Shown here piece after piece: positions 5,293 to 39,234 of a stretch of 64,000 nucleotides of DNA. Each line of letters opens with the position of its first letter. Within the stretch, counting starts at the first letter, position 1. This DNA comes from Candidatus Parcubacteria bacterium (GTDB lineage Bacteria > Patescibacteriota > Minisyncoccia > UBA6257 > HR35): the NCBI GenBank assembly GCA_025999335.1, contig AP024681.1, positions 322,565-386,564 of the forward strand, written 5' to 3'. The translations under genes and the position numbers were made by a program. The notes under the pieces are model-generated. The model saw nothing but the letters and a program-made list of their open reading frames with translations. It ran no database searches and was not told the DNA's origin.

Positions 5293-7314
5293 TTACTCAC
5301 TGTTTGCCCATTGTTTTACTGGTTGCTCCCAGTTATAAAACTGAGGATCATTAGCAGGATTTGATGGCATCGGACCTAAAGGATCATACCTATCAACATA
5401 ATATAAAATATTGTGAATTCCGTAATCAGAAAAGTATTCGCCGTTTAACATTGGTTTGTTAATAAATTTCTTTTGATAAGTTGCAAATTTTTCAGGAGTA
5501 ATTTTGTCTTTATCAATAACATTTTTAAGAAAATCATGGACAATAGGTAAAGCGGCGACCAAACTTGAGCCTAAGGATCGCATTCTTTTGCCATCAGTAT
5601 TACCAGCCCAAACACCGATAACAAAGTTAGGAGTGTAGGCAAAAGCCCAGGCATCTTGATAAAATTGGGTTGTGCCTGTTTTAAGGGCAACTTCGTAGCC
5701 AGGAAAGATTGTTAAATAAAGACTACGGCTAAAAAGTCCTTTGCGCGCTTCAATATCTTTAAGAATATCATTAACCATTCTAGCGGTTTCAGGTGAGATG
5801 ATTTGCTCTTCCTTAACTTTGTGTTCGTAGATTATTTTTCTGTCTTTGATAATTTTTAAAACAAATGTTTGGTTCGTTAGTTTGCCTTCATTAGCTAAAG
5901 CGCCGTAAAATTTTATTAAATCAGCCATTCTTACTTCAGCGGCGCCTAGAGCAGCTGATAAACCATAAGCTTGCCAGTCTTTTAGATAATCCATACCTAT
6001 TTTTTTTGCTAATTCAAAAACTTTTTCGGGTATAGCCAAATAAAATACTTTTACCGCGGGAACATTTCGAGATTCCGCTAAAGCTTGTCTTAAGGAAACA
6101 GGTCCTTTAAATTTATTGTCGAAATTTTTTGGTTTGTAATTACCAAAATTGGTTGGTAAATCAAAAACTATTGTCTCTGGGGAATAGCCGAGTTCAAATA
6201 ATGACGCATAAGCAAGGGGCTTAAAAGCTGATCCAGGTTGCCTTAAGCGAAAAGGAACATTGACTTGTCCGTCAATGCTTTCGTCATTAAAATCTTTAGA
6301 ACCAACTAATGCTATAATTTCTCCTGTTTTTGGATTAATAGCCATTAAAGCAGCATTAGCGCCACCGTAATTTTTTTTGTTTCTTTCGGCCATTTCTTTA
6401 ACGCTTTTTTCAGCTATTTTTTGAATGTCTAAATCTAAAGTGGTTATTACCTTTAAATTGCTATTTTCTAAATTTTCATTTACATCAGGGAGATGCAATG
6501 ATTTTATAAAATTAATTGTTTCAATGACAAAATGAGGAGCTATTAAGCCCGCATATTTAAATTTTTGAATTTTAATTTCCTCGTTTAAAGCATTAACGTA
6601 TTCTTCTGGAGAAATTATTTTTGCATCTTTCATTTTTTTAAGAATAAAATCTCTTCTTTCTTTTGTTTTGATAATATTTGTTGGAGTTAAAGGAGCGTAA
6701 ATATTAGGTGACTTAGGAATGGCAGCCAAGATTGCCATTTCCGATAAAGATAAATTTTCCAGTTTTTTGTCAAAATAAAATTCAGCGGCTGCTTTAACAC
6801 CAACATTGCCAGCGCCAAAATATATTGAATTAAGATAATAGGTTAAAATTTTTTCTTTAGAATAATTTTTTTCTATTTTAATGGCTAGTAAAATTTCTTT
6901 TATTTTACGAATAAAAGTTTTTTCCTGAGTTAAAAATAAATTTCTCGCCAACTGTTGAGTTATTGTTGAACCGCCGTAAGTTAAGCTGCGATTTTTAATA
7001 TTTAAGAATATAGATCTTATAATGCCTCTTAAACTAATACCAGGATGTTCGTAAAATTGTTCGTCTTCAGCGGCTAAAAAAGCTTTAACAAGAAGAGGTG
7101 GGATTTTATCAAAATCAACCCAAGTTCTTCTTAAGCCAATTTTATACAACAAAACCGTGCCGCTGCGATCAAAAAACTCTGTGCCGCCACTAATTATTTT
7201 TTCGCCTAAAATATTTGGAGTTGGCAAATTTTTGTTAATGTATAATATAACAGCGAGAGAAAAGCTGGTTGTTATTAAAACTAAAGATAAACAAATTTTT
7301 AAAAAAAGTCTCAT
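5293..7314 (-). CDS. class A penicillin-binding protein (transglycosylase + transpeptidase)
   Basis: 673 aa. N-terminal membrane anchor, GT51 motifs (EDEQFYEHPGIS, RKIKE), and transpeptidase motifs SGSAFKP (SxxK) and KTGTT. Confidence 0.85.
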   Translation of the reverse strand: MRLFLKICLSLVLITTSFSLAVILYINKNLPTPNILGEKIISGGTEFFDRSGTVLLYKIGLRRTWVDFDKIPPLLVKAFLAAEDEQFYEHPGISLRGIIRSIFLNIKNRSLTYGGSTITQQLARNLFLTQEKTFIRKIKEILLAIKIEKNYSKEKILTYYLNSIYFGAGNVGVKAAAEFYFDKKLENLSLSEMAILAAIPKSPNIYAPLTPTNIIKTKERRDFILKKMKDAKIISPEEYVNALNEEIKIQKFKYAGLIAPHFVIETINFIKSLHLPDVNENLENSNLKVITTLDLDIQKIAEKSVKEMAERNKKNYGGANAALMAINPKTGEIIALVGSKDFNDESIDGQVNVPFRLRQPGSAFKPLAYASLFELGYSPETIVFDLPTNFGNYKPKNFDNKFKGPVSLRQALAESRNVPAVKVFYLAIPEKVFELAKKIGMDYLKDWQAYGLSAALGAAEVRMADLIKFYGALANEGKLTNQTFVLKIIKDRKIIYEHKVKEEQIISPETARMVNDILKDIEARKGLFSRSLYLTIFPGYEVALKTGTTQFYQDAWAFAYTPNFVIGVWAGNTDGKRMRSLGSSLVAALPIVHDFLKNVIDKDKITPEKFATYQKKFINKPMLNGEYFSDYGIHNILYYVDRYDPLGPMPSNPANDPQFYNWEQPVKQWANSE

Positions 7315-20609: not shown

Positions 20610-20681
20610 CGTCCATAGCTCAGCGGTTAGAGCACCGACCTTATAAGTCGGGGGTCCCTGGTTCAAATCCAGGTGGACGCA
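20609..20681 (+). tRNA. tRNA-Ile (anticodon TAT/UAU)
   Basis: Acceptor GCGTCCA/TGGACGC, D-stem GCTC/GAGC, a perfect 5-bp anticodon stem CCGAC/GTCGG, loop CTTATAA (anticodon TAT), and T-loop TTCAAAT. No encoded CCA. Confidence 0.7.
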
Positions 20682-20685
20682 CTTA

Positions 20686-26742: not shown

Positions 26743-27909
26743 TTAGTTATTTTCTGTAAATTGCTTTGGTGAATTTTTATTTTTAGCAATAAATTCGCTC
26801 CATATTTCTAAAGGTGTTTCTTTAGCTTGTCGGGGATCTTTATAAAAAGCGCGATGTCTTTCATAAATTTTTTTTAAGTCATCAATGGTTAAAGCATTAA
26901 TAATTCGTCTGATATGGGGAGTAATATGGAAATAAGTTTTATACATTAAAGTATCAAAAGCTCTTGTTTTCAAAAACTCAAACTTAAACATTGTTGCTAG
27001 CAAGGTTTTTGCTAATAATTCCTGACTTACTTTTTTGCCAAATCTATATCTTCTTATTATCTCATGTTCAAAATCATGAACTACAGGAAACGCTTCAAAC
27101 TCAGCTTTAGTTTTAAAGCCAGCTTTATTTAAGTTATGCCAGATCCAAGTATGACTAGCTCCTAAAACTATTAAAATATTTATTGGTTTTTTGTTTTTAG
27201 CTTTTATTTGAAGAGAAGGATTATTTTCAATTAACTCTCTAATTACTCGAGGAAGATTTTTAAGCATAAATTCGTCTCTTTTTTGAAGACACGTTATTGC
27301 AAAATCTTTTAATATTTTGTTGTATTTTTCTAAAGCTTGTTCAAATGAATAGTTTTTTTTGATTAAAGAGTATCGAAATTTATAAAGACTCGTTATAGCT
27401 TTTTCAGTTAAGGTATACAAATTTGAATCGCGAGGTACGTCAATTAAACCAATTATTTTATTTTTTCCTAATAATCTTTTGGCGATTTGCAGTAACCAAA
27501 ATTTGCCGTTAATTTCTGGTTTTATGTTGTTTACAAGTTTTTCTAATGATTCTTTGTTTAACTTTTCATTAGGTTTAAAGTTATCTTCAATTGTTAAATT
27601 ATTATCTTTAAAAAATTGGAAATCTTCTTTAGTTAAATAACCCCGGGAGCTTATTTCTAAAAGACGCAAATGTGTTTTTTCCCAGCTAGTAAATTCAGGA
27701 AGGTAAATATCTACTTTATTTAAAAGTTTGGTGATTCTTGTTTCTGAAATTTGAGAATCATGAGATTCAAAAAAGAACATAAAATTTAAATTATAACCTC
27801 TATTTTTAAAATCTTCAGCAATTTCTTTAAGTTTTTGTTGCCAAACATCTATTTCTGATTTTTTTAAATTTTCTTTTGTTTTTTGTTTCTTTAAAGAAGG
27901 TTGTTCCAT
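26743..27909 (-). CDS. hypothetical protein, paralog 1 of a tandem pair
   Basis: 388 aa. Shares motifs GYNLNFMFFFESHD, DIYLPEF, LGASHTWIWHNL and KAEFEAFPVVH with the adjacent gene. Confidence 0.4.
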   Translation of the reverse strand: MEQPSLKKQKTKENLKKSEIDVWQQKLKEIAEDFKNRGYNLNFMFFFESHDSQISETRITKLLNKVDIYLPEFTSWEKTHLRLLEISSRGYLTKEDFQFFKDNNLTIEDNFKPNEKLNKESLEKLVNNIKPEINGKFWLLQIAKRLLGKNKIIGLIDVPRDSNLYTLTEKAITSLYKFRYSLIKKNYSFEQALEKYNKILKDFAITCLQKRDEFMLKNLPRVIRELIENNPSLQIKAKNKKPINILIVLGASHTWIWHNLNKAGFKTKAEFEAFPVVHDFEHEIIRRYRFGKKVSQELLAKTLLATMFKFEFLKTRAFDTLMYKTYFHITPHIRRIINALTIDDLKKIYERHRAFYKDPRQAKETPLEIWSEFIAKNKNSPKQFTENN

Positions 27910-27919
27910 TGAAGATATT

Positions 27920-29278
27920 TTATATTGGATGATTTATGTTTATGTATTTTGACCAAATATCTAAAGCTGTTATTTTGCCTTCTCTAATTTTTTTTAATTC
28001 TTCAAATATGTGGCGAACATCGTTTAAAGTGAGTTGGCTAATTATGGTTCTTAAATAAGAAGAAAGATTTGTTATGTAAGAAAGAGATGATAGTCTATAA
28101 AATTCATACGTAAAATACGCTTCAGCCAAACTTTTTGCTGCCAGTTCTTGTATTTTTTCACGATATTTGCTTTTTTCTGATTCGTTTAATTTACTATAAA
28201 CAAAAACATATTTTCGCAAAATTTCAGGATACAGAGAATACACAAATGGCATTTTTGTGAATTTTCTTTTCGTCGGTATGCCTGTTTCTTCTAATTTATG
28301 AAAGATTCTTGTATGGACTGCGCCTAAATTTAACAAGATTTTAATACCTTCTTTGCTCAGAGCTTTTTGCTGTAATTCAGGATGTTCGTTAAGTAAATTA
28401 TCTATAGTTTTTGGAAGTTGTTCAAGCATATAATTTTCTCTTTCTTGCATAAGCTCAGAATATTTTTCAATAGAATTGATTATATTTTCTAATAATTGAT
28501 CGAAATTTTCATCAGGCATTGGTGGGTAATTATCTGGATTAAGAGAATGAAGAGGGGAAGCCTCTAAGACCTCAGATATCTTTTTTTCCAAAGGATGATC
28601 AAGAGGAAGATCTACTATAACAATTGGTTTTTTTGTTCCTTTTATGATTTTAAAACTTTGCAACCCATATTCTAAATAACCAAAAAATTCAGATATATTT
28701 TCTATGTCTTTTTCGTTTAACTCTTTACCTATTTTTAAAATTTTACTTATTTCTTCTTTTAAATTTAAAAATTCAATTACTTGCTTGCCTTTTACTTTGT
28801 TGACAAAAAGTTCAAGAAAAGAAATTTTTGACAAGACAAGATCATCTAGGATCTCAGGTTCTTGAAAATAGGATTCTATAAGAATATCGATTATATCTTC
28901 AGGGGTTGCTTTTACTTTAATTAGAAGAGCGGAAACAGCGTTTGAAGATAATAATTTAGCAAGAGGTTCTTTCTTAAACAAATCTAAAATTTTTTCTAAG
29001 TCATTTTTTTCAAATTTACCTCGGGAGATGCCATTCATTACAATTAAGTCTATTTTTCTCCATCTTATTGATTCAGGAATATAAATATCTGCTGCTGGCA
29101 GTAATTCTTTTAAGGCGCGATAAGTAGCTGGGTCGTAATGTTCTTCAAATAAAATATTAAATTGCAGATTATACCCCTTTTTTTCGAAAAATTCACGCAG
29201 TTTGTTTAATTTCACTAATTTTTTTGTTGGTTTATTGTCTTTTTGTTTTTCACGATGGAAATATTTTGGTATGGTCAT
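27920..29278 (-). CDS. hypothetical protein, paralog 2 of a tandem pair
   Basis: 452 aa. Shares motifs GYNLQFNILFEEHYD, DIYIPES, LGAVHTRIFHKL and KRKFTKMPFVY with the adjacent gene. Confidence 0.4.
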   Translation of the reverse strand: MTIPKYFHREKQKDNKPTKKLVKLNKLREFFEKKGYNLQFNILFEEHYDPATYRALKELLPAADIYIPESIRWRKIDLIVMNGISRGKFEKNDLEKILDLFKKEPLAKLLSSNAVSALLIKVKATPEDIIDILIESYFQEPEILDDLVLSKISFLELFVNKVKGKQVIEFLNLKEEISKILKIGKELNEKDIENISEFFGYLEYGLQSFKIIKGTKKPIVIVDLPLDHPLEKKISEVLEASPLHSLNPDNYPPMPDENFDQLLENIINSIEKYSELMQERENYMLEQLPKTIDNLLNEHPELQQKALSKEGIKILLNLGAVHTRIFHKLEETGIPTKRKFTKMPFVYSLYPEILRKYVFVYSKLNESEKSKYREKIQELAAKSLAEAYFTYEFYRLSSLSYITNLSSYLRTIISQLTLNDVRHIFEELKKIREGKITALDIWSKYININHPI

Positions 29279-29646: not shown

Positions 29647-32600
29647 ATGCTCAATAGAATAAAAACAAAATTTTTTTATTTGTTTTTAATTATTATTTTA
29701 GAATTTTTATTTTTTTCAAATGTGTATGCAGTATCTCCAACAATAAGCGATGTTAAATTTAAAGGAGCTGGCGACAATAATAAAATTGTCATATTTTTTG
29801 ATCAACCTGTTACTACGGCAACAAATAGTCCTCCTGGTTCTCCCGGTTCTTATTTAGTTCCAAGTGATTTTGTTTTAGGTGGTTCTGTTGGCGGCGGTGT
29901 AACAATAAACTCTGTTGAAACAATCACGATGCCCTTTTTTAATAAAACTATTGCTATTTTATCTCTTAGTGGTAATGTTAATCCTACAGCATTAGGACAG
30001 TGGACAGTTGCTGCTTCCTCGTCTCAAATATTTAATTCAAACGGCGAACCAGTTCCAACAACAGTTATTGATTTAAATGGAAAGGGAGATAATGTCCCAC
30101 CTAATGTTTTAAATGTTTTATTGGCTCATCAAAATGAACTTTTTGTACGTTTTTCCGAAGAAATTGATCAGACATCCGGGCAAGCTACTTCTAGTTATTC
30201 TAATTTGCAAACTTCAGCTACCGGCGATACTCCTGGAATTACCGAAAGATCGGTTTTTATGGAGAGAACCTTTGCGGTAATTAGAGTAACAACTTCTACA
30301 ATTTTGGGCTGGGGCAGCGGTAATACGATTGATGTTGGTGGCATTCAAGATTTAGTTGGTAATGCAATGATAACCTCAACAATTACTATTTTGCCACCAT
30401 TGAACATTAGCGAGGTGAAGGCAGAATCAACAACCAATAATCAGGATGAATTTATAGAAATTTATAATTTTAGCGATCTTAATATCAATATAGCCACTGA
30501 TACTTTTTTCTTGCATATTAGAAATGGTGCTACTGACACGGCAAAAACTTTAACCTTAAGAAGGAACCAAATCCCTAGCTTTGGTTATTATTTAATTTGC
30601 TCGGCTTCACATTATAGCGGGACGGTTGCTTGTGATGCTACTTATGATTCTTCTGCGATTGACATTACTCCAAACTCAGCTGTTTATATTTCTGCAACTT
30701 CAAGCACTTCGACAGCGTTAAGAATTGATTTATTAGGCATGGGCAGCGCCGAGATTTTTGAAGCCGCAACCACTGCTTCATTAATGGCTGGAAAGTCATT
30801 TGAAAGAAAAGCGCACCCCAATTCTTCAACTTCAACAATGGCAATGGGCGGTAGTGATGAATTTAAAGGCAATGGTTTTGATACAAATAATAATAGCCTC
30901 GATTTTCTTTTAAGAGACATACCTCAACCGCAAAATTCCCTTTCGCCTAGAGAATTTCCGTTTGGTCAAAGTAGTCAAAGCAATGATGTTACCCCACCAC
31001 AGGTTATGGGTTCTTTCCCAAGCGGTGCTTTAGGTGAAATTGTACCTAACAATCTTCCCGAGATTGGTTTTGGTTTTAACGAACCAGTTCAGGAGGCAAG
31101 TGTTAACACTTCAACAGTAAAATTATTTAAAGGATCAGATACAAGCACTAATTATTGTCAATCAGTTGATTATGTAAATTTTGTTGATCCCATAAATCCA
31201 AGATCACCAGGGCGATGCTTTATTAGCCCTTCAAGTTTGCCTCTTGATACGACGGCTACTTGGACATTTAAAATTTTAGGCGATGCTTCAAACGCAACTT
31301 CTAGTATTGCCGTTAGGGATTTTAATAATAACGCTTTAAATCAGCCAACCTCTAACAAAGGAGATGGGACTGGAAGTTATGTTGTTCAATTTAGACCTTC
31401 ATCGGGTGGCAGTGGATTTACCTTTACTGAGCCACCAATTATGGTTTGGGGCACTTTACCGTTTGAAGGTTCTTTTAATATTCCTACAAATATTAAAAAG
31501 GTATTTATAAAGTTTTCAAACAATGTGGCGACTTCAAGCGCTAATTTAAGTTCCACACATTTTAAAGTAAGAAAAATTTCTGATTTAAGTGAGGTTCCTT
31601 TATCTTCGATTACCGCAATATCAAGCGGGCCACAATTTACTTCAGATGTTGTTGTTCTTAATCTCGGCGCCACATTATCAGCTAATACTGAATATGAAAT
31701 TGTAATTGAGAATGTTTCAAGTCAAAATGGTCTATCAAGCGTTACTAGTTTTCCTCGAAGATTTACAACCGGTGGTTCGGCAGATACTTCCGGTCCTCGA
31801 GTTATTGGAAGATTGCCAAATATTTCTAGCAATGTTCCTGTAAGCGCAATTGATATTCATATAATGGCTGATGACAGGATTGATCCAATGTCAATTTCAA
31901 CAACTACAGTTAAAGTCTTTCAAGGAAGCAATGAGATTCCTGGTAGAGTTGACTTTGATCCATTTACTGGCGAAATTCTGTTTTTTACTAATAATGTTTT
32001 TCAAGCAAGCACTACTTATACAGTTAGACTTTACGCTTCAGGCACTACGCCTTGTATTAAAAATTTATCCGATATTTGTTTGCAAGATGACGACGGCATA
32101 GCCAATAATTTTTACGAATTTAGTTTTACTACCGGCGATCCCGATACGCAAGCACCGAATATTCTTTTTGCTCATGCCGACCAGAGAAATCTTTCCCTTA
32201 CTTTTAACGAACCCATTGATCCAAGACAAGCCGTTGATTTTAATAATTACACTCTTGTTGTTAACAATGCAACCTCTGTAATTTCAAGCTTAGCTGGACA
32301 AAGGATTTTTTATGACTACATCCATAGAACGGTGGTGATTGAAAATCTTAATTTACCAGTTAGAGCCAGCTTTACAATTACTGTTAGTAATATAACCGAT
32401 CTTTCTGGTAATTTGATTGGTTCACCTAATTCTGTAAGTGGAATTGTTGAAGATATTAATATGACCGGCGGTATGGTTGGACCAGGCGCAGCCCCGCCTC
32501 CGCCACCGGGGGATGTTCCTCAAAACTTTTCAACAACTACTTTCGCTCTTGCCCCTCAACCTGATGTTTTTCCAATGTCACCATTGGCAGGAGCGACAAC

Positions 32601-35600
32601 CAATTACTTTATAGGTATTCCAATTTCAAGACAAGTTAAAAATTCTTTTGGTGGTGGCAAAATTGTTTTGACATTTCCTAGCGGTTTTGATATTAGCAAT
32701 GCTTCTTTGCGTGTTTTTACCGGTATAACCCCTGATGCTAATGGCCCTGGTCCAGGAGTTTTAACGCCAAGTTTAACCAAAGATGCTAGCGCCAGAACAA
32801 TTACTCTAACTTTAGACACAAATACAAGATGTGATAACGGCAATAATGCGCCTTGTTCAGGTGACGCTCATGATTTCTTGCAATTTGATATTTCTGGCAT
32901 AGTTAATTCTTCTATTCCTAAAGACGCTGCGAGCGGTGGTTATACTCTTGATATTAAAACTTTTGAGGGAACAACTGTTTTAGAATCTTTGACTTCGCGA
33001 CCATTTTTCATTGTTGCTGGTGGCAATAGTTCTTTAGTAGTTAATGTTTTGGCAAGTGGCGCAATATCAGGAAATGCAAAAGTCAAGCTTTTTTCGCCAA
33101 TGACCGGTCCAAGAGATGCTATAAGCACGACATTTTCTAGTAGTTCGGCGACTGCAACCTTTACTAATTTATTAGAAGGTGACTATTTTGTTAACACTGA
33201 TCCTGTTGTAAGCTTGGGGAGTAATGATTATTTAGGTGTTTTTATGCCTAATCCGATTAGGGTTCAAGGCGCAACAACAACTTTTTCTTTAACATTGCAA
33301 CCAACCACAGGTTTTGCCACTGTGACTGTCCAGGTAACCGGTCCTAGTGGTAAATTTATTGATATTTTTGCTCATAGTATGGATGGCAAGTTTTTCAAGA
33401 AAGCAACGACAACAACCGGCTCGGTTCAAAATGTAATTTTAAAACTTGCAACCGGTACCTGGTGGATCGGTGTTGGTCCGCAAATACCAGATGATCCTTT
33501 TAGTGGTCCACCGCCGGCGCCAGATTTTATAGCGCAACCACCAGTTGAAGTTAAAATTATTTCACCTTCGAATATTCAGGAAAATTCAGGCACAATTAAT
33601 GATGGTACAGTAATTTTTGCTTTATCTGCTGCTGATAAAACAATTTCCGGTAGCGTAGTTGATCATCAAGGACGAGCGGTGGTTAATGCTGATGTTTTTG
33701 CTTTTCAACCTCAAGGCGGTTTTGATACTCATACGCAGAGCGATGGTTTAGGTAAGTTTACTTTAAAGGTTTCGGCTGGTTTATATCAAGTTGGTGCTTT
33801 TAAATTTGGCTTGCCGCCAGCACCAGAAATATCTGTTGAAGTCAAAAATGATGGTACTTTATTGGTTAATGGACAATCGGCTACATCGGTAACAATAAAA
33901 ATTATAAAACCTGAAAGAACCATTAGCGGTAAAGTTTTAGATCAAAATAATAATCCAGCGCAGAATGCATCAGTTTGGGCTTATTGCGATCCGAATGTTA
34001 CCAATAATGCTTGTTTAGGTCCCGGTGATCATTCTTGGTCGCCAACTGGTCAAGACGGTTCCTACTCGCTTTTTGTTAAAAATGGTACCTGGAAAGTTGG
34101 CGCCTTTTTGCCAGGGTTTGGCGAATTAGGTTTGCAAAGCGTTACAGTTTCTAGTTCTGATATGACTAATGTTAATTTTTCTCCGCCAACAAACGTGACT
34201 TTCTTAAATATTAGCGGAACTATTTGTCGTGATACTGATGTAAGCGGTAGTGCTACTATTTGTGGTTCTGGAGATGAAAAGGTTTCGGGCGTATTTGTGA
34301 GAGCTGAAGGTGCTGCTGGTCATAATAATAGTGTTAGCGATATAAACGGTGCTTATCAATTAAGAGTACTAGCAACAACTTCTGCTTACACTCTTGAAGC
34401 TTGGGACCCAGCTATGGGCCGAATAAGACCTTTAAGTGTGATTGCTTCCTCAACCGATAGGACTGGTCAGGATTTTGTGATTCCAACACCGCGAACAATT
34501 ACAATTAATGTTAAAGACAGTAATGGTAATTTTGTTACTGTTAAAGAACTATTTGTTGATTTTGAAGATTTTACAAATAAGGTATTTAATCATATAAAGA
34601 TTAATAATGCTAATTCTGGAACATTGCAGCTTCCTGATGGTTCTTATAAAGTTAGAGCTGGTTTGCCGGCACAATTTTTAGGACATTCAGTTATTTCTTC
34701 TGATGCTGTGGGCACTGTTTTTGCAACTTCAACCGGAATATTAACTGTTGATGGCAATGAAATAATTAAAGTAACCTTGCCAGTAATGGGAGTTATTGCC
34801 GGCACTGTTAAAGATGAAGCAAATAATCCAATTGATGTTTGGGTAAGTTTTGGTAATCAAGGAACAGGAATTTTTACCGGAGTATTAGCAAATGCAAGCG
34901 GTACTTATTCTATAGTTTTACCTTTTGCTACTTATACTGTTTCGGCGTTTAAGGAAGGTTACTTTTCAACACCGGTTATTCAAGGCGTTGCTACAACCTC
35001 AACAACGACACTTAACTTAACTGTAACCCGAGCTAATTTTACAATTTCGGGAAGAGTTACAATTAATAACACTCCTGCTCCAAGGGCATTTGTTTGGGCA
35101 GAAAGAGCGGGAGGTGGATTTAGTAGCGCAGAGACCGGTTCTGACGGTAATTACACTTTAGCAGTTTCTGCTGGAACTTGGCGAGTCTTTGCAGTTAGTC
35201 ATGGTTATGCTGAAGCTGAAGCTTCATCTCCGGTCGAAGTTACTACTGCTTCGATTTCTGGAGTAAATATTAATCTAACAACAGCTATTACTTTATCTAC
35301 GGTCAAGACTTGTTCAATTATACCAGCTCAAGGAGGCAACTGCTCTTATGATCCTAATAACGATGGCATTAAAGAAATAAGCTTAACTTTTCCGGCTGGT
35401 GCTTTAGGTTCGGATTCCAGTCCAGCTATTGTAAGCATTAGCGAAACTAATGTTCTTCGTGAAAGTGAATCCATTAAACCAGCTGGAAAAGAATTTGATT
35501 TAGAAGTAGTTGATGCAAATGGAATACCAATTGATACTTTTAACTCGCCTGTTATTGTAGAAATTATTCAAAGTAAAGCTGATTTAGCTTCTGCTGGTTT

Positions 35601-36879
35601 TGACACTAAAGCTGAAGCAGATGGATTGAAATTTATTCAGCCATCAGAAACAACTAATGAATTTGATGTTAGAGTTAGCACAGTTGATTACCTTGATGCT
35701 TCAGGCAATCTTGTTTCTTCTCCGGCTGCTGATTTAAGTAATGTTAGTTTCATTAAAATTACTGCTGAAACAACTCACTTTTCTGGTGGTGGCGTAGGAG
35801 GCAGTGGCGATACAATAAGACCTTCAGCGCCAACCGGTGTTTCTGCTTCTGTTTCTGAGACAACCGTAAATCTTAGTTGGAATGCAGTAACAACAAATTT
35901 TGATGGTACGCCTATTACTGATTTAGCTGGTTATCGTATTTATAGAAGCACTTCGCAAAGTAGTGGATTTTCCTTTATTGCGAGCGTTAGTTCAACGACT
36001 ACTAGTTATTCTAATAGTGGTTTAACAAGGGGGACTACTTATTATTATAGAGTGACAGCAATAGATACAAGTAATAATGAATCTGACCCATCTTCAACTT
36101 CCAATGCGGCAACAATTTCTCAATCGGTTAGCGGTAGTGGTGGCGGTAGTGGTGGAGGCGGTGGTGGCTCAACGCCAATTCCAACCGGGACATCTACTAC
36201 GAGCACAATTCCTGTTTCAACAACAACAACCACGACAACTGCTACTACCACAGCTCCAACAACTACTCCTACAATCACTACTACAACCATTTCAATAACA
36301 CCTGAAGTTAAAAAACAAACTGGCTTACCAAAAGTTAAACCTAAAGTAAAAGCAAAAACTAAAGCTTTAGCTATTAAATTTAAGAGAAATTTGACCATAG
36401 GTTCAACCGGCGATGATGTTAAGGATTTGCAAACATTTTTAGAGAATAAAGGATTTTTGAAGATGCCTAAAGGAATTGCTAAAGGTTATTTTGGTCCATT
36501 AACGGCATCAGCTTTAAAGGCTTATCAAAAAAGTGTAGGTCTTTCTGCTACTGGTTATTTTGGGACCACGACAAGAGAGAAAATTATAGAAGAGATGGGC
36601 ATAGAAATTCCTAAAGAAAAGCCAATTAAGCCAAAAGGAAAATTTAAACGACCGCTTTGGCGTGGTTCAAAGGGCGAGGATGTTAAGTTACTTCAAGAGA
36701 TTTTAGCTAAGAAAGGATTTTACAATGGTTCAATTACAGGTTATTTTGGTTCTTTGACAGAAAAAGCAGTTCAAGAATTTCAACTTCAATATAAAATTAC
36801 CACAAAAAACAATCCTGCTTTTGGGTTTGTTGGTCCTTCGACAAGAGCTAAACTTAATGAATTATTGGATGAAGAATAA
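29647..36879 (+). CDS. giant secreted cell-surface protein (2410 aa): signal peptide, lamin-tail domain, multiple Ig-like/carboxypeptidase-regulatory-like domains, FN3, Gly/Thr-rich stalk, and two C-terminal peptidoglycan-binding domains
   Basis: N-terminal signal peptide (LFFSNVYA|VSP). An LTD-like segment with EFIEIYN (~30397-30790). Repeated ...GKVLDQNNNPAQNASVWAY/...GSVVDHQGRAVVNADVFAF CarbPepD_reg-like units. An FN3 module (PSAPTGVSASV...LSWNAV...GYRIYRS...YYYRVTAID). Low-complexity GSGGGSGGGGGGS and TTTTTTTATTTAPTTTPTITTTT stretches. Two PG_binding_1-like repeats (GDDVKDLQTFLENKGF...GYFGPLTASALKAYQ; GEDVKLLQEILAKKGF...GYFGSLTEKAVQEFQ). Confidence 0.8.
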   Translation: MLNRIKTKFFYLFLIIILEFLFFSNVYAVSPTISDVKFKGAGDNNKIVIFFDQPVTTATNSPPGSPGSYLVPSDFVLGGSVGGGVTINSVETITMPFFNKTIAILSLSGNVNPTALGQWTVAASSSQIFNSNGEPVPTTVIDLNGKGDNVPPNVLNVLLAHQNELFVRFSEEIDQTSGQATSSYSNLQTSATGDTPGITERSVFMERTFAVIRVTTSTILGWGSGNTIDVGGIQDLVGNAMITSTITILPPLNISEVKAESTTNNQDEFIEIYNFSDLNINIATDTFFLHIRNGATDTAKTLTLRRNQIPSFGYYLICSASHYSGTVACDATYDSSAIDITPNSAVYISATSSTSTALRIDLLGMGSAEIFEAATTASLMAGKSFERKAHPNSSTSTMAMGGSDEFKGNGFDTNNNSLDFLLRDIPQPQNSLSPREFPFGQSSQSNDVTPPQVMGSFPSGALGEIVPNNLPEIGFGFNEPVQEASVNTSTVKLFKGSDTSTNYCQSVDYVNFVDPINPRSPGRCFISPSSLPLDTTATWTFKILGDASNATSSIAVRDFNNNALNQPTSNKGDGTGSYVVQFRPSSGGSGFTFTEPPIMVWGTLPFEGSFNIPTNIKKVFIKFSNNVATSSANLSSTHFKVRKISDLSEVPLSSITAISSGPQFTSDVVVLNLGATLSANTEYEIVIENVSSQNGLSSVTSFPRRFTTGGSADTSGPRVIGRLPNISSNVPVSAIDIHIMADDRIDPMSISTTTVKVFQGSNEIPGRVDFDPFTGEILFFTNNVFQASTTYTVRLYASGTTPCIKNLSDICLQDDDGIANNFYEFSFTTGDPDTQAPNILFAHADQRNLSLTFNEPIDPRQAVDFNNYTLVVNNATSVISSLAGQRIFYDYIHRTVVIENLNLPVRASFTITVSNITDLSGNLIGSPNSVSGIVEDINMTGGMVGPGAAPPPPPGDVPQNFSTTTFALAPQPDVFPMSPLAGATTNYFIGIPISRQVKNSFGGGKIVLTFPSGFDISNASLRVFTGITPDANGPGPGVLTPSLTKDASARTITLTLDTNTRCDNGNNAPCSGDAHDFLQFDISGIVNSSIPKDAASGGYTLDIKTFEGTTVLESLTSRPFFIVAGGNSSLVVNVLASGAISGNAKVKLFSPMTGPRDAISTTFSSSSATATFTNLLEGDYFVNTDPVVSLGSNDYLGVFMPNPIRVQGATTTFSLTLQPTTGFATVTVQVTGPSGKFIDIFAHSMDGKFFKKATTTTGSVQNVILKLATGTWWIGVGPQIPDDPFSGPPPAPDFIAQPPVEVKIISPSNIQENSGTINDGTVIFALSAADKTISGSVVDHQGRAVVNADVFAFQPQGGFDTHTQSDGLGKFTLKVSAGLYQVGAFKFGLPPAPEISVEVKNDGTLLVNGQSATSVTIKIIKPERTISGKVLDQNNNPAQNASVWAYCDPNVTNNACLGPGDHSWSPTGQDGSYSLFVKNGTWKVGAFLPGFGELGLQSVTVSSSDMTNVNFSPPTNVTFLNISGTICRDTDVSGSATICGSGDEKVSGVFVRAEGAAGHNNSVSDINGAYQLRVLATTSAYTLEAWDPAMGRIRPLSVIASSTDRTGQDFVIPTPRTITINVKDSNGNFVTVKELFVDFEDFTNKVFNHIKINNANSGTLQLPDGSYKVRAGLPAQFLGHSVISSDAVGTVFATSTGILTVDGNEIIKVTLPVMGVIAGTVKDEANNPIDVWVSFGNQGTGIFTGVLANASGTYSIVLPFATYTVSAFKEGYFSTPVIQGVATTSTTTLNLTVTRANFTISGRVTINNTPAPRAFVWAERAGGGFSSAETGSDGNYTLAVSAGTWRVFAVSHGYAEAEASSPVEVTTASISGVNINLTTAITLSTVKTCSIIPAQGGNCSYDPNNDGIKEISLTFPAGALGSDSSPAIVSISETNVLRESESIKPAGKEFDLEVVDANGIPIDTFNSPVIVEIIQSKADLASAGFDTKAEADGLKFIQPSETTNEFDVRVSTVDYLDASGNLVSSPAADLSNVSFIKITAETTHFSGGGVGGSGDTIRPSAPTGVSASVSETTVNLSWNAVTTNFDGTPITDLAGYRIYRSTSQSSGFSFIASVSSTTTSYSNSGLTRGTTYYYRVTAIDTSNNESDPSSTSNAATISQSVSGSGGGSGGGGGGSTPIPTGTSTTSTIPVSTTTTTTTATTTAPTTTPTITTTTISITPEVKKQTGLPKVKPKVKAKTKALAIKFKRNLTIGSTGDDVKDLQTFLENKGFLKMPKGIAKGYFGPLTASALKAYQKSVGLSATGYFGTTTREKIIEEMGIEIPKEKPIKPKGKFKRPLWRGSKGEDVKLLQEILAKKGFYNGSITGYFGSLTEKAVQEFQLQYKITTKNNPAFGFVGPSTRAKLNELLDEE

Positions 36880-37250: not shown

Positions 37251-37973
37251 TTATTTAAAATTACCACAAGCAAAACCTAAAGTGATAAGAGCATCGGTAT
37301 TTTGTAATTTTAGTAATTTTTTGATTTCATCATCATGCAAAGCTCCGGAGATAACACCACCAATATTTTCGTTTGCTAAGCGTAAGCCGAGGCTTTGCGC
37401 ATAAAGTCCGGTTTCAATAAGGATGAATCTACCACCGCGTTCACCGTATTTATTAACAGTTCTTTCAGGAATAGCGACAAAAATAAAAAATACCGCGGGT
37501 TCTCCTTCTAATTCTAAGCCAAAGAATTCTTTAATTTCATTCCATTCAGGGCAATTTGTTACTATTGAGAGAGAATGATTGTCGGCATTATAGTAGACGA
37601 TTTTTTTGTTTAATTTGCTTTTAACATTAAATAAACAAGCAAAAACTTCAATAGGATATTTGCCGCCAGCTGATGGTAATAATCTTTTTGTTGAATTTTG
37701 TTGAGCAAAAGCATAAAACAATGACCCTAATTGTTTTTCTGAGATAGGCACGCTAGAAAATTCTCTAGTACTTTTTCTTTGAGACATTATATAGGCTAGA
37801 CGATCTTTAGGCTTTTTTAAAAATAAATCTTCACTAGGGTAAAAAATTTGGGGTATGGTTTTAAAAGTTCGAGCATCTTCTATGAGATTTTTGATTAATT
37901 TTAAAGATGTTTGCTTGTTTAGTTTAGAATTTTCCCAGAACAACCTAAAAAGATCTGCTTTGTTTTCGTCCAT
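37251..37973 (-). CDS. SagB/McbC-type FMN-dependent dehydrogenase (azoline oxidase) of a TOMM-like cluster
   Basis: 240 aa nitroreductase-fold protein with the SagB-type motif PSAGGKYPIEVF and an RKSTREF segment. Adjacent to the YcaO gene on the same strand. Confidence 0.65.
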   Translation of the reverse strand: MDENKADLFRLFWENSKLNKQTSLKLIKNLIEDARTFKTIPQIFYPSEDLFLKKPKDRLAYIMSQRKSTREFSSVPISEKQLGSLFYAFAQQNSTKRLLPSAGGKYPIEVFACLFNVKSKLNKKIVYYNADNHSLSIVTNCPEWNEIKEFFGLELEGEPAVFFIFVAIPERTVNKYGERGGRFILIETGLYAQSLGLRLANENIGGVISGALHDDEIKKLLKLQNTDALITLGFACGNFK

Positions 37974-37977
37974 TGTT

Positions 37978-39234
37978 TTATCCTAAAGGATGAGGCAATT
38001 TATTTGGAAATTCGACTTGATTAACTAAATCAGGATATCGCCATTTTACATCTGCTGTCCGTCCACCAAGAAAAGGAGCTCGTTCATCGCCGTGAAGCAA
38101 AGATAGCTCTGGAGATAAAACTCTTATTACATTTAAACCAGTTTCACGCACTTCGTCAATGGTTATATCACGATAAAATAGTCTGATGTTTTGTTCTTTT
38201 AATTGTTTAATTAAATTTGTTAAAATTTCAATTGTGTTAGTAGCTTTATTTTCTTGGGCTTGTTTTTGATATGAAAATCGTTTTTTTAACAAGGGAGTTT
38301 TGTGCCATAAGTGTGGATAAAGAGTATAGTAAACGGCATGTTTGTCAAAATCAACAATATCTTCAATTTTATTAAGTTTTAAATCTCTATTATAAAGGCT
38401 ATAAAATCCAGCAAAAATTACCCCTTGAATCCATTCAAGATATGCTTTTTCAATGGCTTCTTCATAAGTTGGTCGACAAGCAACGCCCATTGAAATTCGT
38501 TTTTTATTTCTTAGCGGCAAATGACCACAAACAATAACAACAGGATGAGGATTCCATTGTTGAGTTATATCAAAACAGAAAATTTCGCCACCCTTTTTTA
38601 AAACAGGATTTGTATATTTTTCATCAAGCTTGATTTCTCTGCCGCCTAAGGAATTAAGCCAATAAACAGTTAAGGCATCTCTTTCTAAGACTTCTTGAAT
38701 CCCCAACAATAAAGCATTGAACTTATTAAAATGAGCCGCTAACCCAGTTGACGTTGAGGGAAGAAAAGCTTTGTTAGATTTTGTGCCTAACCCAATTAAT
38801 TCTTGCGGGACCCAAAATTTTTCGTTATTATACACCGAATAAACTTCGCCAAAAAATGCTTCTTTAATATCAAATTTTTCCCAAGGAAAATTTTTGTTAT
38901 TATACTGTTTTTCTAAAAAAAGAGAAAATTGATCATGGGTAATTATTTTTTCATTTTTTATTTCTGATAATTTTTTAACTGGAAAATTTATTAAAAATGC
39001 CGAATATCTTTCCATAGCTTCAGCAATAGCACTAATAGTTGCTATTTGTTCATCTTGGTTGATCCCACCACTGGCTGATCTCCATGCTTCAATGGAATTT
39101 TCAGGTACAGAAACATTGGCTATATTTTCAATATCTGCAAAAGTGTTTTCAACTTTTTGAGGCGGAAGAACAATCCCGCAACGAAAACTTGTCGCTTTTT
39201 GTAAAACATATTGATTTAAAGTTTTTTTAAACAT
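37978..39234 (-). CDS. YcaO-domain cyclodehydratase
   Basis: 418 aa. YcaO ATP-binding signature ...GGINQDEQIATISAIAEAMERYSA. Pro-rich C-terminus ...FPNKLPHPLG, as in azoline-forming YcaOs. Separated from the SagB-like gene by 4 nt. Confidence 0.75.
   Translation of the reverse strand: MFKKTLNQYVLQKATSFRCGIVLPPQKVENTFADIENIANVSVPENSIEAWRSASGGINQDEQIATISAIAEAMERYSAFLINFPVKKLSEIKNEKIITHDQFSLFLEKQYNNKNFPWEKFDIKEAFFGEVYSVYNNEKFWVPQELIGLGTKSNKAFLPSTSTGLAAHFNKFNALLLGIQEVLERDALTVYWLNSLGGREIKLDEKYTNPVLKKGGEIFCFDITQQWNPHPVVIVCGHLPLRNKKRISMGVACRPTYEEAIEKAYLEWIQGVIFAGFYSLYNRDLKLNKIEDIVDFDKHAVYYTLYPHLWHKTPLLKKRFSYQKQAQENKATNTIEILTNLIKQLKEQNIRLFYRDITIDEVRETGLNVIRVLSPELSLLHGDERAPFLGGRTADVKWRYPDLVNQVEFPNKLPHPLG

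Follow-up and report, generated by a model that had tools for sequence, protein, structure and literature searches.

A 250-kDa modular surface protein of CPR bacteria with a putative self-cleaving, MAIN-type joint beside its wall-binding anchor

The longest open reading frame of the window, the term used here for the whole 64,000-nucleotide stretch of contig AP024681.1 that was analyzed, probably encodes a Sec-secreted, modular CPR surface protein of 250 kDa, in which a wall-bound C-terminal fragment carries the ectodomain on a self-cleaved joint of the MAIN type. Judged by its sequence, the protein appears to be a new and CPR-wide member of the recently described releasable wall-anchored surface proteins, with cleavage as a prediction. 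MAIN (Microbial Autoproteolysis INducing) domains are GAIN_B-like domains of bacteria and archaea (Brogan & Rudner, bioRxiv 10.64898/2026.05.12.724683, May 2026). [quoted passage not shown] Virtually all MAIN proteins carry, from N- to C-terminus, a signal peptide, adhesion or enzyme domains, the MAIN domain and a wall anchor. LTD, fn3 and CarboxypepD_reg are on the list of MAIN-associated domains, and PG_binding_1 occurs in 3 of the ~15,000 MAIN proteins tabulated (Brogan & Rudner, 2026). The available parts of the text and supplements of that preprint contain no mention of Patescibacteria.

The reading frame (29647..36879, on the + strand, as are all features given below) is complete, with an ATG start, 2410 aa and a stop codon included in the coordinates, and its translation contains zero internal stops. 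It occupies 11.3% of the window, the second-largest ORF encoding 839 aa, in agreement with the first-pass annotation, which had named it the largest gene at 11% of the sequence. The strings quoted there (EFIEIYN at aa 268-274, GSGGGSGGGGGGS and T7ATTTAPTTTPTITTTT) are all found in the translation. The GC content of the gene is 0.37-0.39 vs ~0.29 in its surroundings, which is explained by amino-acid composition (GC2 is 0.48, and Thr, Ser and Gly make up 31% of the protein). GC3 is 0.22, as in all other genes of the window, and is the same as in the genome. The gene is therefore native, and this agreement in GC3 rules out horizontal transfer as the source of the raised GC. All 14 cysteines are arranged in seven close pairs, compatible with an extracellular location of the protein. 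The window also carries an RNase P of class A and 8 tRNAs, i.e., it is bacterial, and a Mur ligase together with a LytR-CpsA-Psr (LCP) gene, and thus the organism makes its own wall. Promoter and terminator scans around the gene did not exceed the shuffled expectation, and the 368-nt leader showed neither an Rfam match nor unusual folding (z = 0.16).

An independent Logan contig (L048, SRR27730031) is 99.8% identical to the window across 8010 nt. At 36029-36034, where the window reads G5A, this contig has G8, which shifts the frame by +2 within the FN3 domain and yields ORFs of 2136 aa and 275 aa. Such a difference would suit a pseudogene or an assembly artefact, with frameshifts in the population and a long ORF that is not expressed as one protein. 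We consider this explanation highly improbable, given that the ORF is unbroken in the window, that its GC3 equals that of the genome, and that more than 40 orthologues are intact through the same region. Furthermore, poly-G differences are frequent among short-read and assembly errors, and apart from this site the window has no G or C run >5. It is more likely that the L048 difference reflects a strain-specific lesion or a mistake in assembly or sequencing than that the window ORF is artefactual.

The N-terminus was read from the sequence as a Sec-type signal peptide (aa 1-28, 29647..29730) composed of MLNRIKTK, a hydrophobic core and VYA|VS. The protein has a single hydrophobic segment, located here (aa 5-33, KD19 of up to 2.1), with a basic n-region before it and VYA|VS at its end, and these properties fit the signal peptide that had been suggested earlier. 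Domains were sought by Pfam scans of the whole protein and then of ten overlapping segments, the latter leaving aa 940-1260 and ~1880-2050 unassigned, as well as by iterated HMMs built from the orthologue alignment. These HMMs place six Big_5-type Ig-like domains in total between aa 31 and 924. Two of them (aa 31-135 and 152-241; 29737..30369) were recognized by the iterated family HMM with E values of 1.5e-11 and 2.2e-24, Pfam Big_5 being weak. Four further ones (aa 466-565, 610-695, 728-795 and 836-924; 31042..32418) were found by Pfam and the family HMM, the latter giving E values of 5.8e-18 to 1.3e-25 and 5e-4 for one weaker copy; Pfam Big_5 (PF13205) scored 27.6 and 31.9 bits in two segments, with a cut-off of 23.6. 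Between the two groups lies a putative lamin-tail-like domain (LTD, aa 250-440, 30394..30966) that includes EFIEIYN. The LTD assignment of the first-pass annotation finds support at the family level, as Pfam LTD matches 14 of 16 orthologous segments (best E 2.5e-14), but the copy in the window protein scores 21-23.5 bits, below the Pfam cut-off of 34.3. A PDB profile search with the LTD segment found no lamin structure.

A Gly/Pro-rich linker (GGMVGPGAAPPPPPGDVP, 32464..32526), also read from the sequence, leads to a beta-sandwich domain without a Pfam match (aa 960-1125, 32524..33021). A PDB profile search with aa 955-1135 returned nothing significant, and a YcnI/cohesin-like sandwich is the best explanation that we can offer for this domain. 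CarboxypepD_reg-like repeats follow (33040..35250; Pfam and iterated HMM), two of them divergent (aa 1132-1183 and 1225-1276; E 2e-9 and 7e-4) and six firm (aa 1332-1868; E 3.7e-26 to 9e-15). On the whole protein, CarboxypepD_reg (PF13620) reaches 104 bits in 4 stretches vs a cut-off of 32.3, so the repeats reported earlier are real, although "more than 8" was a slight over-count. The six Big_5 domains, the sandwich at aa 960-1125 and the ZU5/GAIN-like domain described next, i.e., half of the domains, were absent from the first-pass annotation. Domain searches detected no enzyme domain in the protein.

The domain at aa 1880-2052 (35284..35802) is predicted to be a ZU5/GAIN(MAIN)-like beta-sandwich of the autoproteolysis type, its model showing the GAIN_B/ZU5 fold. 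Structural matches of the model include the GAIN domains of CD97, CELSR1, GPR126 and BAI3 (scores of 9.8-8.6), UNC5B (9.3) and the FIIND of CARD8 and NLRP1 (7.3 and 7.1), with the autoproteolytic domains of Nup98/Nup145 scoring lower. GAIN domains were also ranked at the top by Foldseek, without significance. At the sequence level, Pfam ZU5 gives weak matches, none over the cut-off, to 7 of the 20 segments taken from orthologues (best E 0.013). The window's own aa 1880-2052 segment has no Pfam ZU5 match, and a PDB profile search with aa 1872-2052 gave nothing significant. A diverse family profile searched against the PDB yielded the ZU5 domain of ZO-1 below threshold (E 0.51), aligned at the N-terminal GG..GV.I.IP..AL motif.

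Near the end of this domain lies H2044-F2045-S2046 (35776..35784), the only H[FLM][ST] in the whole protein, placed in the model between the last two strands (164-173 and 177-180). The predicted scissile bond falls between nt 35781 and 35782, a position to which conservation, the model and gene fission point. The motif reads HFS, HFT or HLT in 20 orthologues, where the His never varies and the third residue is S or T throughout. Alignments of 21 and 31 sequences keep H2044 without exception (21/21 and 31/31), and in the latter, which was deliberately made diverse, no other column is invariant. A profile search of 1.84 billion representative proteins retrieved 615 relatives at E <= 1e-3, most of them 2000-5000 aa long and with the domain located ~80% along the length; among the proteins listed, H-[FLM]-[ST] is found in 128 of 134 domain matches that cover the motif. 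It is also kept in nearly all of the 43 genome loci described below, one Peregrinibacteria variant reading PTFS. HFS corresponds to HX(S/T), the motif for autoproteolysis in GAIN and ZU5 domains.

Split genes offer evidence of a different kind. Homologues P0013 and P0014 stop exactly at ...THF. On contigs L046 and L047 a stop codon comes directly after the Phe, and a second ORF begins further downstream, after a gap of a few bases in L046 and of a few dozen in L047, starting with MIKKITQAIGVLWFGIALTAFA|GGGPGEGGDS... and VIRKIFTIVLVLVLGLSLTSGAEA|AGGPGEGGDS..., respectively. Each second ORF consists of a signal-peptide-like leader and the post-HFS residues of unsplit relatives, followed by FN3 and PG_binding_1. 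The signal peptide of this anchor fragment looks cleavable, and the fragment has no membrane segment. The gene products of L046 and L047 reproduce the predicted cleavage products. The two split proteins are 64% identical and mutual nearest relatives, therefore the fission is old and has been kept. As evolutionary evidence that does not depend on experiment, the split sequences argue that the working protein can do without a covalent bond at HF|S.

Beyond the motif, the FN3 module noted in the first-pass annotation was recovered as a fibronectin type III domain at aa 2060-2150 (35824..36096), with Pfam fn3 (PF00041) scoring 30.9 bits on the whole protein and 37 bits on the segment (cut-off 25). 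It is followed by a Gly-/Thr-/Lys-rich low-complexity linker (aa 2160-2250, 36124..36396), evident on reading the translation and poorly conserved across orthologues. Two predicted PG_binding_1 domains close the protein (aa 2254-2312, 36406..36582; aa 2337-2403, 36655..36855), the second also being matched by the NCBIfam SleB N-terminal PG-binding region. With 96.4-104.6 bits for PG_binding_1 (PF01471) in two stretches and a cut-off of 23, the C-terminal pair proposed earlier is retained. Neither an LPXTG near the C-terminus nor a second hydrophobic segment is present, which places the protein outside the sortase-anchored class, and Pfam searches with the whole protein and its segments detected no SLH or CWB2. 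The predicted N-fragment (aa 29-2045) has a computed mass of 212.5 kDa and a pI of 4.65, and the predicted C-fragment (aa 2046-2410) 38.2 kDa and a pI of 9.71. Overall, the secreted, modular architecture with a C-terminal wall anchor that had been postulated is supported by the domain searches. This architecture draws further support from the swappable C-terminal modules of the orthologues, the basic anchor vs the acidic ectodomain and the wall-synthesis genes of the window.

Full-length orthologues, 27-54% identical over up to 100% of the length, were found in MAGs that bear the labels Liptonbacteria and Wolfebacteria. When species-representative genomes were scanned, 43 loci emerged, with labels such as Liptonbacteria, Uhrbacteria, Kerfeldbacteria, Peregrinibacteria, Gracilibacteria, Peribacteria, Falkowbacteria, Colwellbacteria, Kaiserbacteria and Paceibacterota; in some cases the automatic assignment to "Gammaproteobacteria" or "Saccharibacteria" looks unreliable. 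The affiliation with the CPR is indicated by the homologues, all of which come from Patescibacteria-type MAGs. Conservation is even along the body and lower in the first 100 residues, the linker and the anchor. The C-terminal module is swapped between orthologues, which carry one or two PG_binding_1 domains, sometimes with a coiled coil, or other repeats; the alternative modules (GDPRVYV-type repeats; GERAGVVNSFK...AYSGAKR) had no Pfam match. A conserved neighbourhood was considered and rejected, as the flanks differ in loci L001 and L003, and tblastn of 11 flank proteins of the window against 47 loci gave no match. The gene is a solitary one and has no relation to the YcaO/nitroreductase pair next to it. 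Our search of the literature returned no specific description of an S-layer or giant surface protein of this kind in the CPR.

Based on the above, we propose that the protein would be exported by the Sec pathway with removal of its signal peptide. The MAIN-like sandwich would fold, and a His-assisted N-O acyl shift at S2046 would cut F2045|S2046, a step suggested by the fold, the motif conservation, the gene fission and the experimental precedent in the family. The basic FN3-linker-PG_binding_1 fragment would bind the peptidoglycan of its own cell non-covalently, the Gly/Thr/Lys linker spanning the wall, and the 212-kDa N-fragment would be held on this 38-kDa wall-bound fragment by beta-strand complementation alone. 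The acidic ectodomain, comprising ~16 predicted beta-sandwich modules (6 Big_5, the LTD, one YcnI/cohesin-like and ~8 CarboxypepD_reg), would be displayed and could dissociate or be shed, e.g., under mechanical load. The first-pass annotation had pictured one continuous rigid stalk, which is probably wrong on an essential point, because the ZU5/GAIN-type module is located between the ectodomain and the FN3-linker-anchor part. The two parts are likely to be held together non-covalently.

Compared by description, the window protein shows the MAIN-type order of signal peptide, ectodomain, MAIN and surface anchor. Its likeness to YfkN and other MAIN proteins, also drawn by description, extends to large size, the same N-to-C order and a GAIN_B-like sandwich ending in HX(S/T), which is HFS in both YfkN and the window protein. 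However, the window protein is from the CPR, has PG_binding_1 rather than a sortase-type or SLH anchor, has its cleavage site separated from the anchor by FN3 and a long low-complexity linker, lacks an enzyme domain, is Gly-rich after the cleavage site and has split-gene relatives. Unlike the eukaryotic GAIN domains of adhesion GPCRs and the ZU5/FIIND domains of UNC5, PIDD, NLRP1 and CARD8, it lacks both the GAIN_A helical subdomain and a 7TM or death-fold partner; its anchor is a wall-binding domain, and sequence similarity is under the family thresholds. ZU5 autoprocessing was predicted to be general in large bacterial surface proteins with adhesion modules (Zhang et al., 2012; PMC3482391). 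The cases given there are mostly RHS/toxin proteins with an N-terminal ZU5, whereas the domain of the window protein is C-proximal, beside the anchor, and no toxin or RHS module accompanies it. Clostridioides difficile CwpV and the bacterial SEAL and eukaryotic SEA domains are reported to be similar (PMC3256870, PMC10556640) in being surface proteins, tethered to wall or membrane, that cleave themselves through an N-O acyl shift and whose fragments remain non-covalently bound to each other, but the folds and motifs are unrelated and CwpV is anchored N-terminally via CWB2 repeats. Finally, the S-layer proteins SbsA/SbsC and Sap resemble the window protein in their beads-on-a-string of Ig-like domains (SbsA-type Big_5 among them), their acidic body and their basic wall-binding module, while the window protein lacks SLH, is two to three times larger and has a predicted self-cleaving module.

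Regarding the role of the ectodomain, adhesion would be our first choice and a surface coat the second. Adhesion fits the MAIN precedent and the more variable N-terminal tip. An S-layer-type coat, in which the acidic ectodomain would self-assemble into a surface lattice of CPR cells with the basic C-fragment as wall tie, is somewhat unlikely, but we keep it as a serious alternative. It is compatible with cleavage, which would in that case serve assembly or turnover rather than adhesion. The coat would account for the same domain order in many CPR classes (43 loci) and for the even conservation over 2000 residues, a pattern that would be unusual if the protein were a fast-evolving adhesin. An acidic body joined to a basic anchor and arrays of SbsA-type Big_5 are typical of Gram-positive S-layer proteins, and S-layer proteins were reported to be prevalent in Patescibacteria (bioRxiv 10.1101/2024.05.28.596244). 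However, no SLH or other known S-layer anchor was found, 250 kDa exceeds the usual size of S-layer proteins, the promoter scan was not above chance, and the MAIN proteins reported to date contain domains for adhesion or enzymatic activity (Brogan & Rudner, 2026). The first-pass annotation also raised a role as host-cell adhesin for an epibiotic lifestyle and suggested that the Thr-rich stretch could be O-glycosylated; both ideas are speculation.

It is also conceivable, although unlikely, that the protein is an uncleaved rigid adhesin, a single covalent chain with PG_binding_1 in its own wall, where the ZU5-like domain would act as a structural or binding sandwich in the manner of ankyrin ZU5. 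The conservation of the His and Ser/Thr of HX(S/T) far above all other positions, the splitting of the gene exactly at HF|S in two diverged species and the self-cleavage of bacterial domains of like type and architecture (Brogan & Rudner, 2026) all speak for the cleaved form instead. Very little weight is given to a reversed topology, with the N-terminal segment as an uncleaved membrane anchor and the distal PG_binding_1 pair gripping the peptidoglycan of a host. CPR bacteria are often epibionts and PG_binding_1 cannot tell own from foreign wall, but MAIN anchors are always C-terminal (Brogan & Rudner, 2026) and VYA|VS is a cleavage-type site after the hydrophobic core. Moreover, the anchor fragment of the split genes has its own, putatively cleavable signal peptide and no membrane segment and must therefore attach by itself, and the organism has its own wall genes.

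How CPR/Patescibacteria attach to and detach from their hosts, and what their surface layers are made of, are open questions because few of these bacteria have been cultured. The gene family provides a concrete candidate, conserved CPR-wide, for attachment or surface structure, and it would bring CPR bacteria, with PG_binding_1 as a non-covalent anchor, into the range of the newly described MAIN domains. A bolder and doubtful extension is that the family forms the main outward structure of ultra-small CPR cells, either host-attachment fibre or S-layer, and works as a two-piece mechanical fuse with a GAIN-like joint. If so, the 212-kDa ectodomain would tear off its wall-bound stub under load, and the epibiont would detach or leave material on the host; the ancient fission at the scissile bond would mean that the two-piece state is the working form, and GAIN-type mechanics would be present in one of the deepest bacterial radiations.

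The preferred reading of a self-cleaved joint makes a simple biochemical prediction, namely cleavage at HF|S that is lost in S2046A. The predicted ends are ...ITAETTHF and the neo-N-terminus SGGGVGGSGDTIR, peptide signatures for which existing metaproteomes can be screened. After the cleavage site, the window protein and its closest relatives (14) have GGGVGG/GGGPxx in place of the hydrophobic xFAxxx strand of most relatives (120), and therefore fragment retention may be weaker in this clade.

In the homologous contigs L046 (1-3729) and L047 (176-7246), the orthologous gene is present as two ORFs, the upstream one ending precisely with the HF of HFS, the motif at which the protein is predicted to cleave itself. 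In the downstream ORF, a newly acquired signal-peptide-like leader precedes GGGPGEGGDS..., the FN3 domain and PG_binding_1. Judging from the identity of 64% between the two species concerned, the gene fission is old. In a single orthologue, that of the Peregrinibacteria MAG locus L016, HFS is replaced by PTFS (His to Thr), with the domain ending at approximately ORF residue 2526. This protein is possibly unable to cleave itself and might act as a natural control.

All 14 cysteines of the 2410-aa window protein are found in seven pairs with a spacing of 8-20 residues and one pair per domain (residues 318/329, 504/524, 803/811, 1062/1070, 1447/1456, 1527/1539, and 1889/1899), an arrangement that points to loops stapled locally by disulfides. 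Of these pairs, 1889/1899 lies within the ZU5-like domain, and its conservation is restricted to the closest clade.

Concerning the modular composition of the homologues, P0011 (2720 aa) has an insertion of approximately 350 residues inside the LTD domain, consisting of Kelch/beta-propeller-like repeats with W.YNG..W motifs, which suggests that the LTD region is a site tolerating the addition of binding modules. The C-termini of homologues P0020, P0021, and P0022 and those of P0002, P0012, and P0017 contain other modules instead of, or besides, PG_binding_1. Among the orthologue C-termini, a conserved module of ~130 aa (GERAGVVNSFK...IAYSGAKR) and repeats of ~45 aa of the GDPRVYVI/GKTVYLI type have no Pfam match; presumably, they represent alternative wall-binding anchors.

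The independent Logan contig L048, which is 99.8% identical to the window over 8010 nt, has G8 around positions 6810-6817, where the window reads G5A (36029-36034). The result is a +2 frameshift within the FN3 domain that leaves two ORFs of 2136 and 275 aa in place of one. Possible causes of this difference are an assembly error at the homopolymer, a lesion of the strain or slipped-strand variation.

Directly upstream of the window ORF, two divergently transcribed ORFs of 388 and 452 aa (26743-29278, minus strand) matched nothing in Pfam, and no homologous gene was present in the regions flanking any of the related loci. On the other side, a YcaO cyclodehydratase (129.6 bits) adjoins a nitroreductase-family protein, possibly a SagB-like dehydrogenase (37251-39234, minus strand), and these are followed by three ORFs without a match in Pfam (39362-41747). 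This group may represent a small RiPP cluster of the azoline/TOMM type within a reduced genome.

Finally, ARAGORN identified a tRNA-Ile with the anticodon UAU at 20609-20682; isoleucine tRNAs with this anticodon are uncommon among bacteria. The Rfam match to 'Plastid-ycf2 5'UTR' on the opposite strand of the same bases, barely over the threshold (66.0 vs. 65.7 bits), is almost certainly spurious and due to the tRNA.
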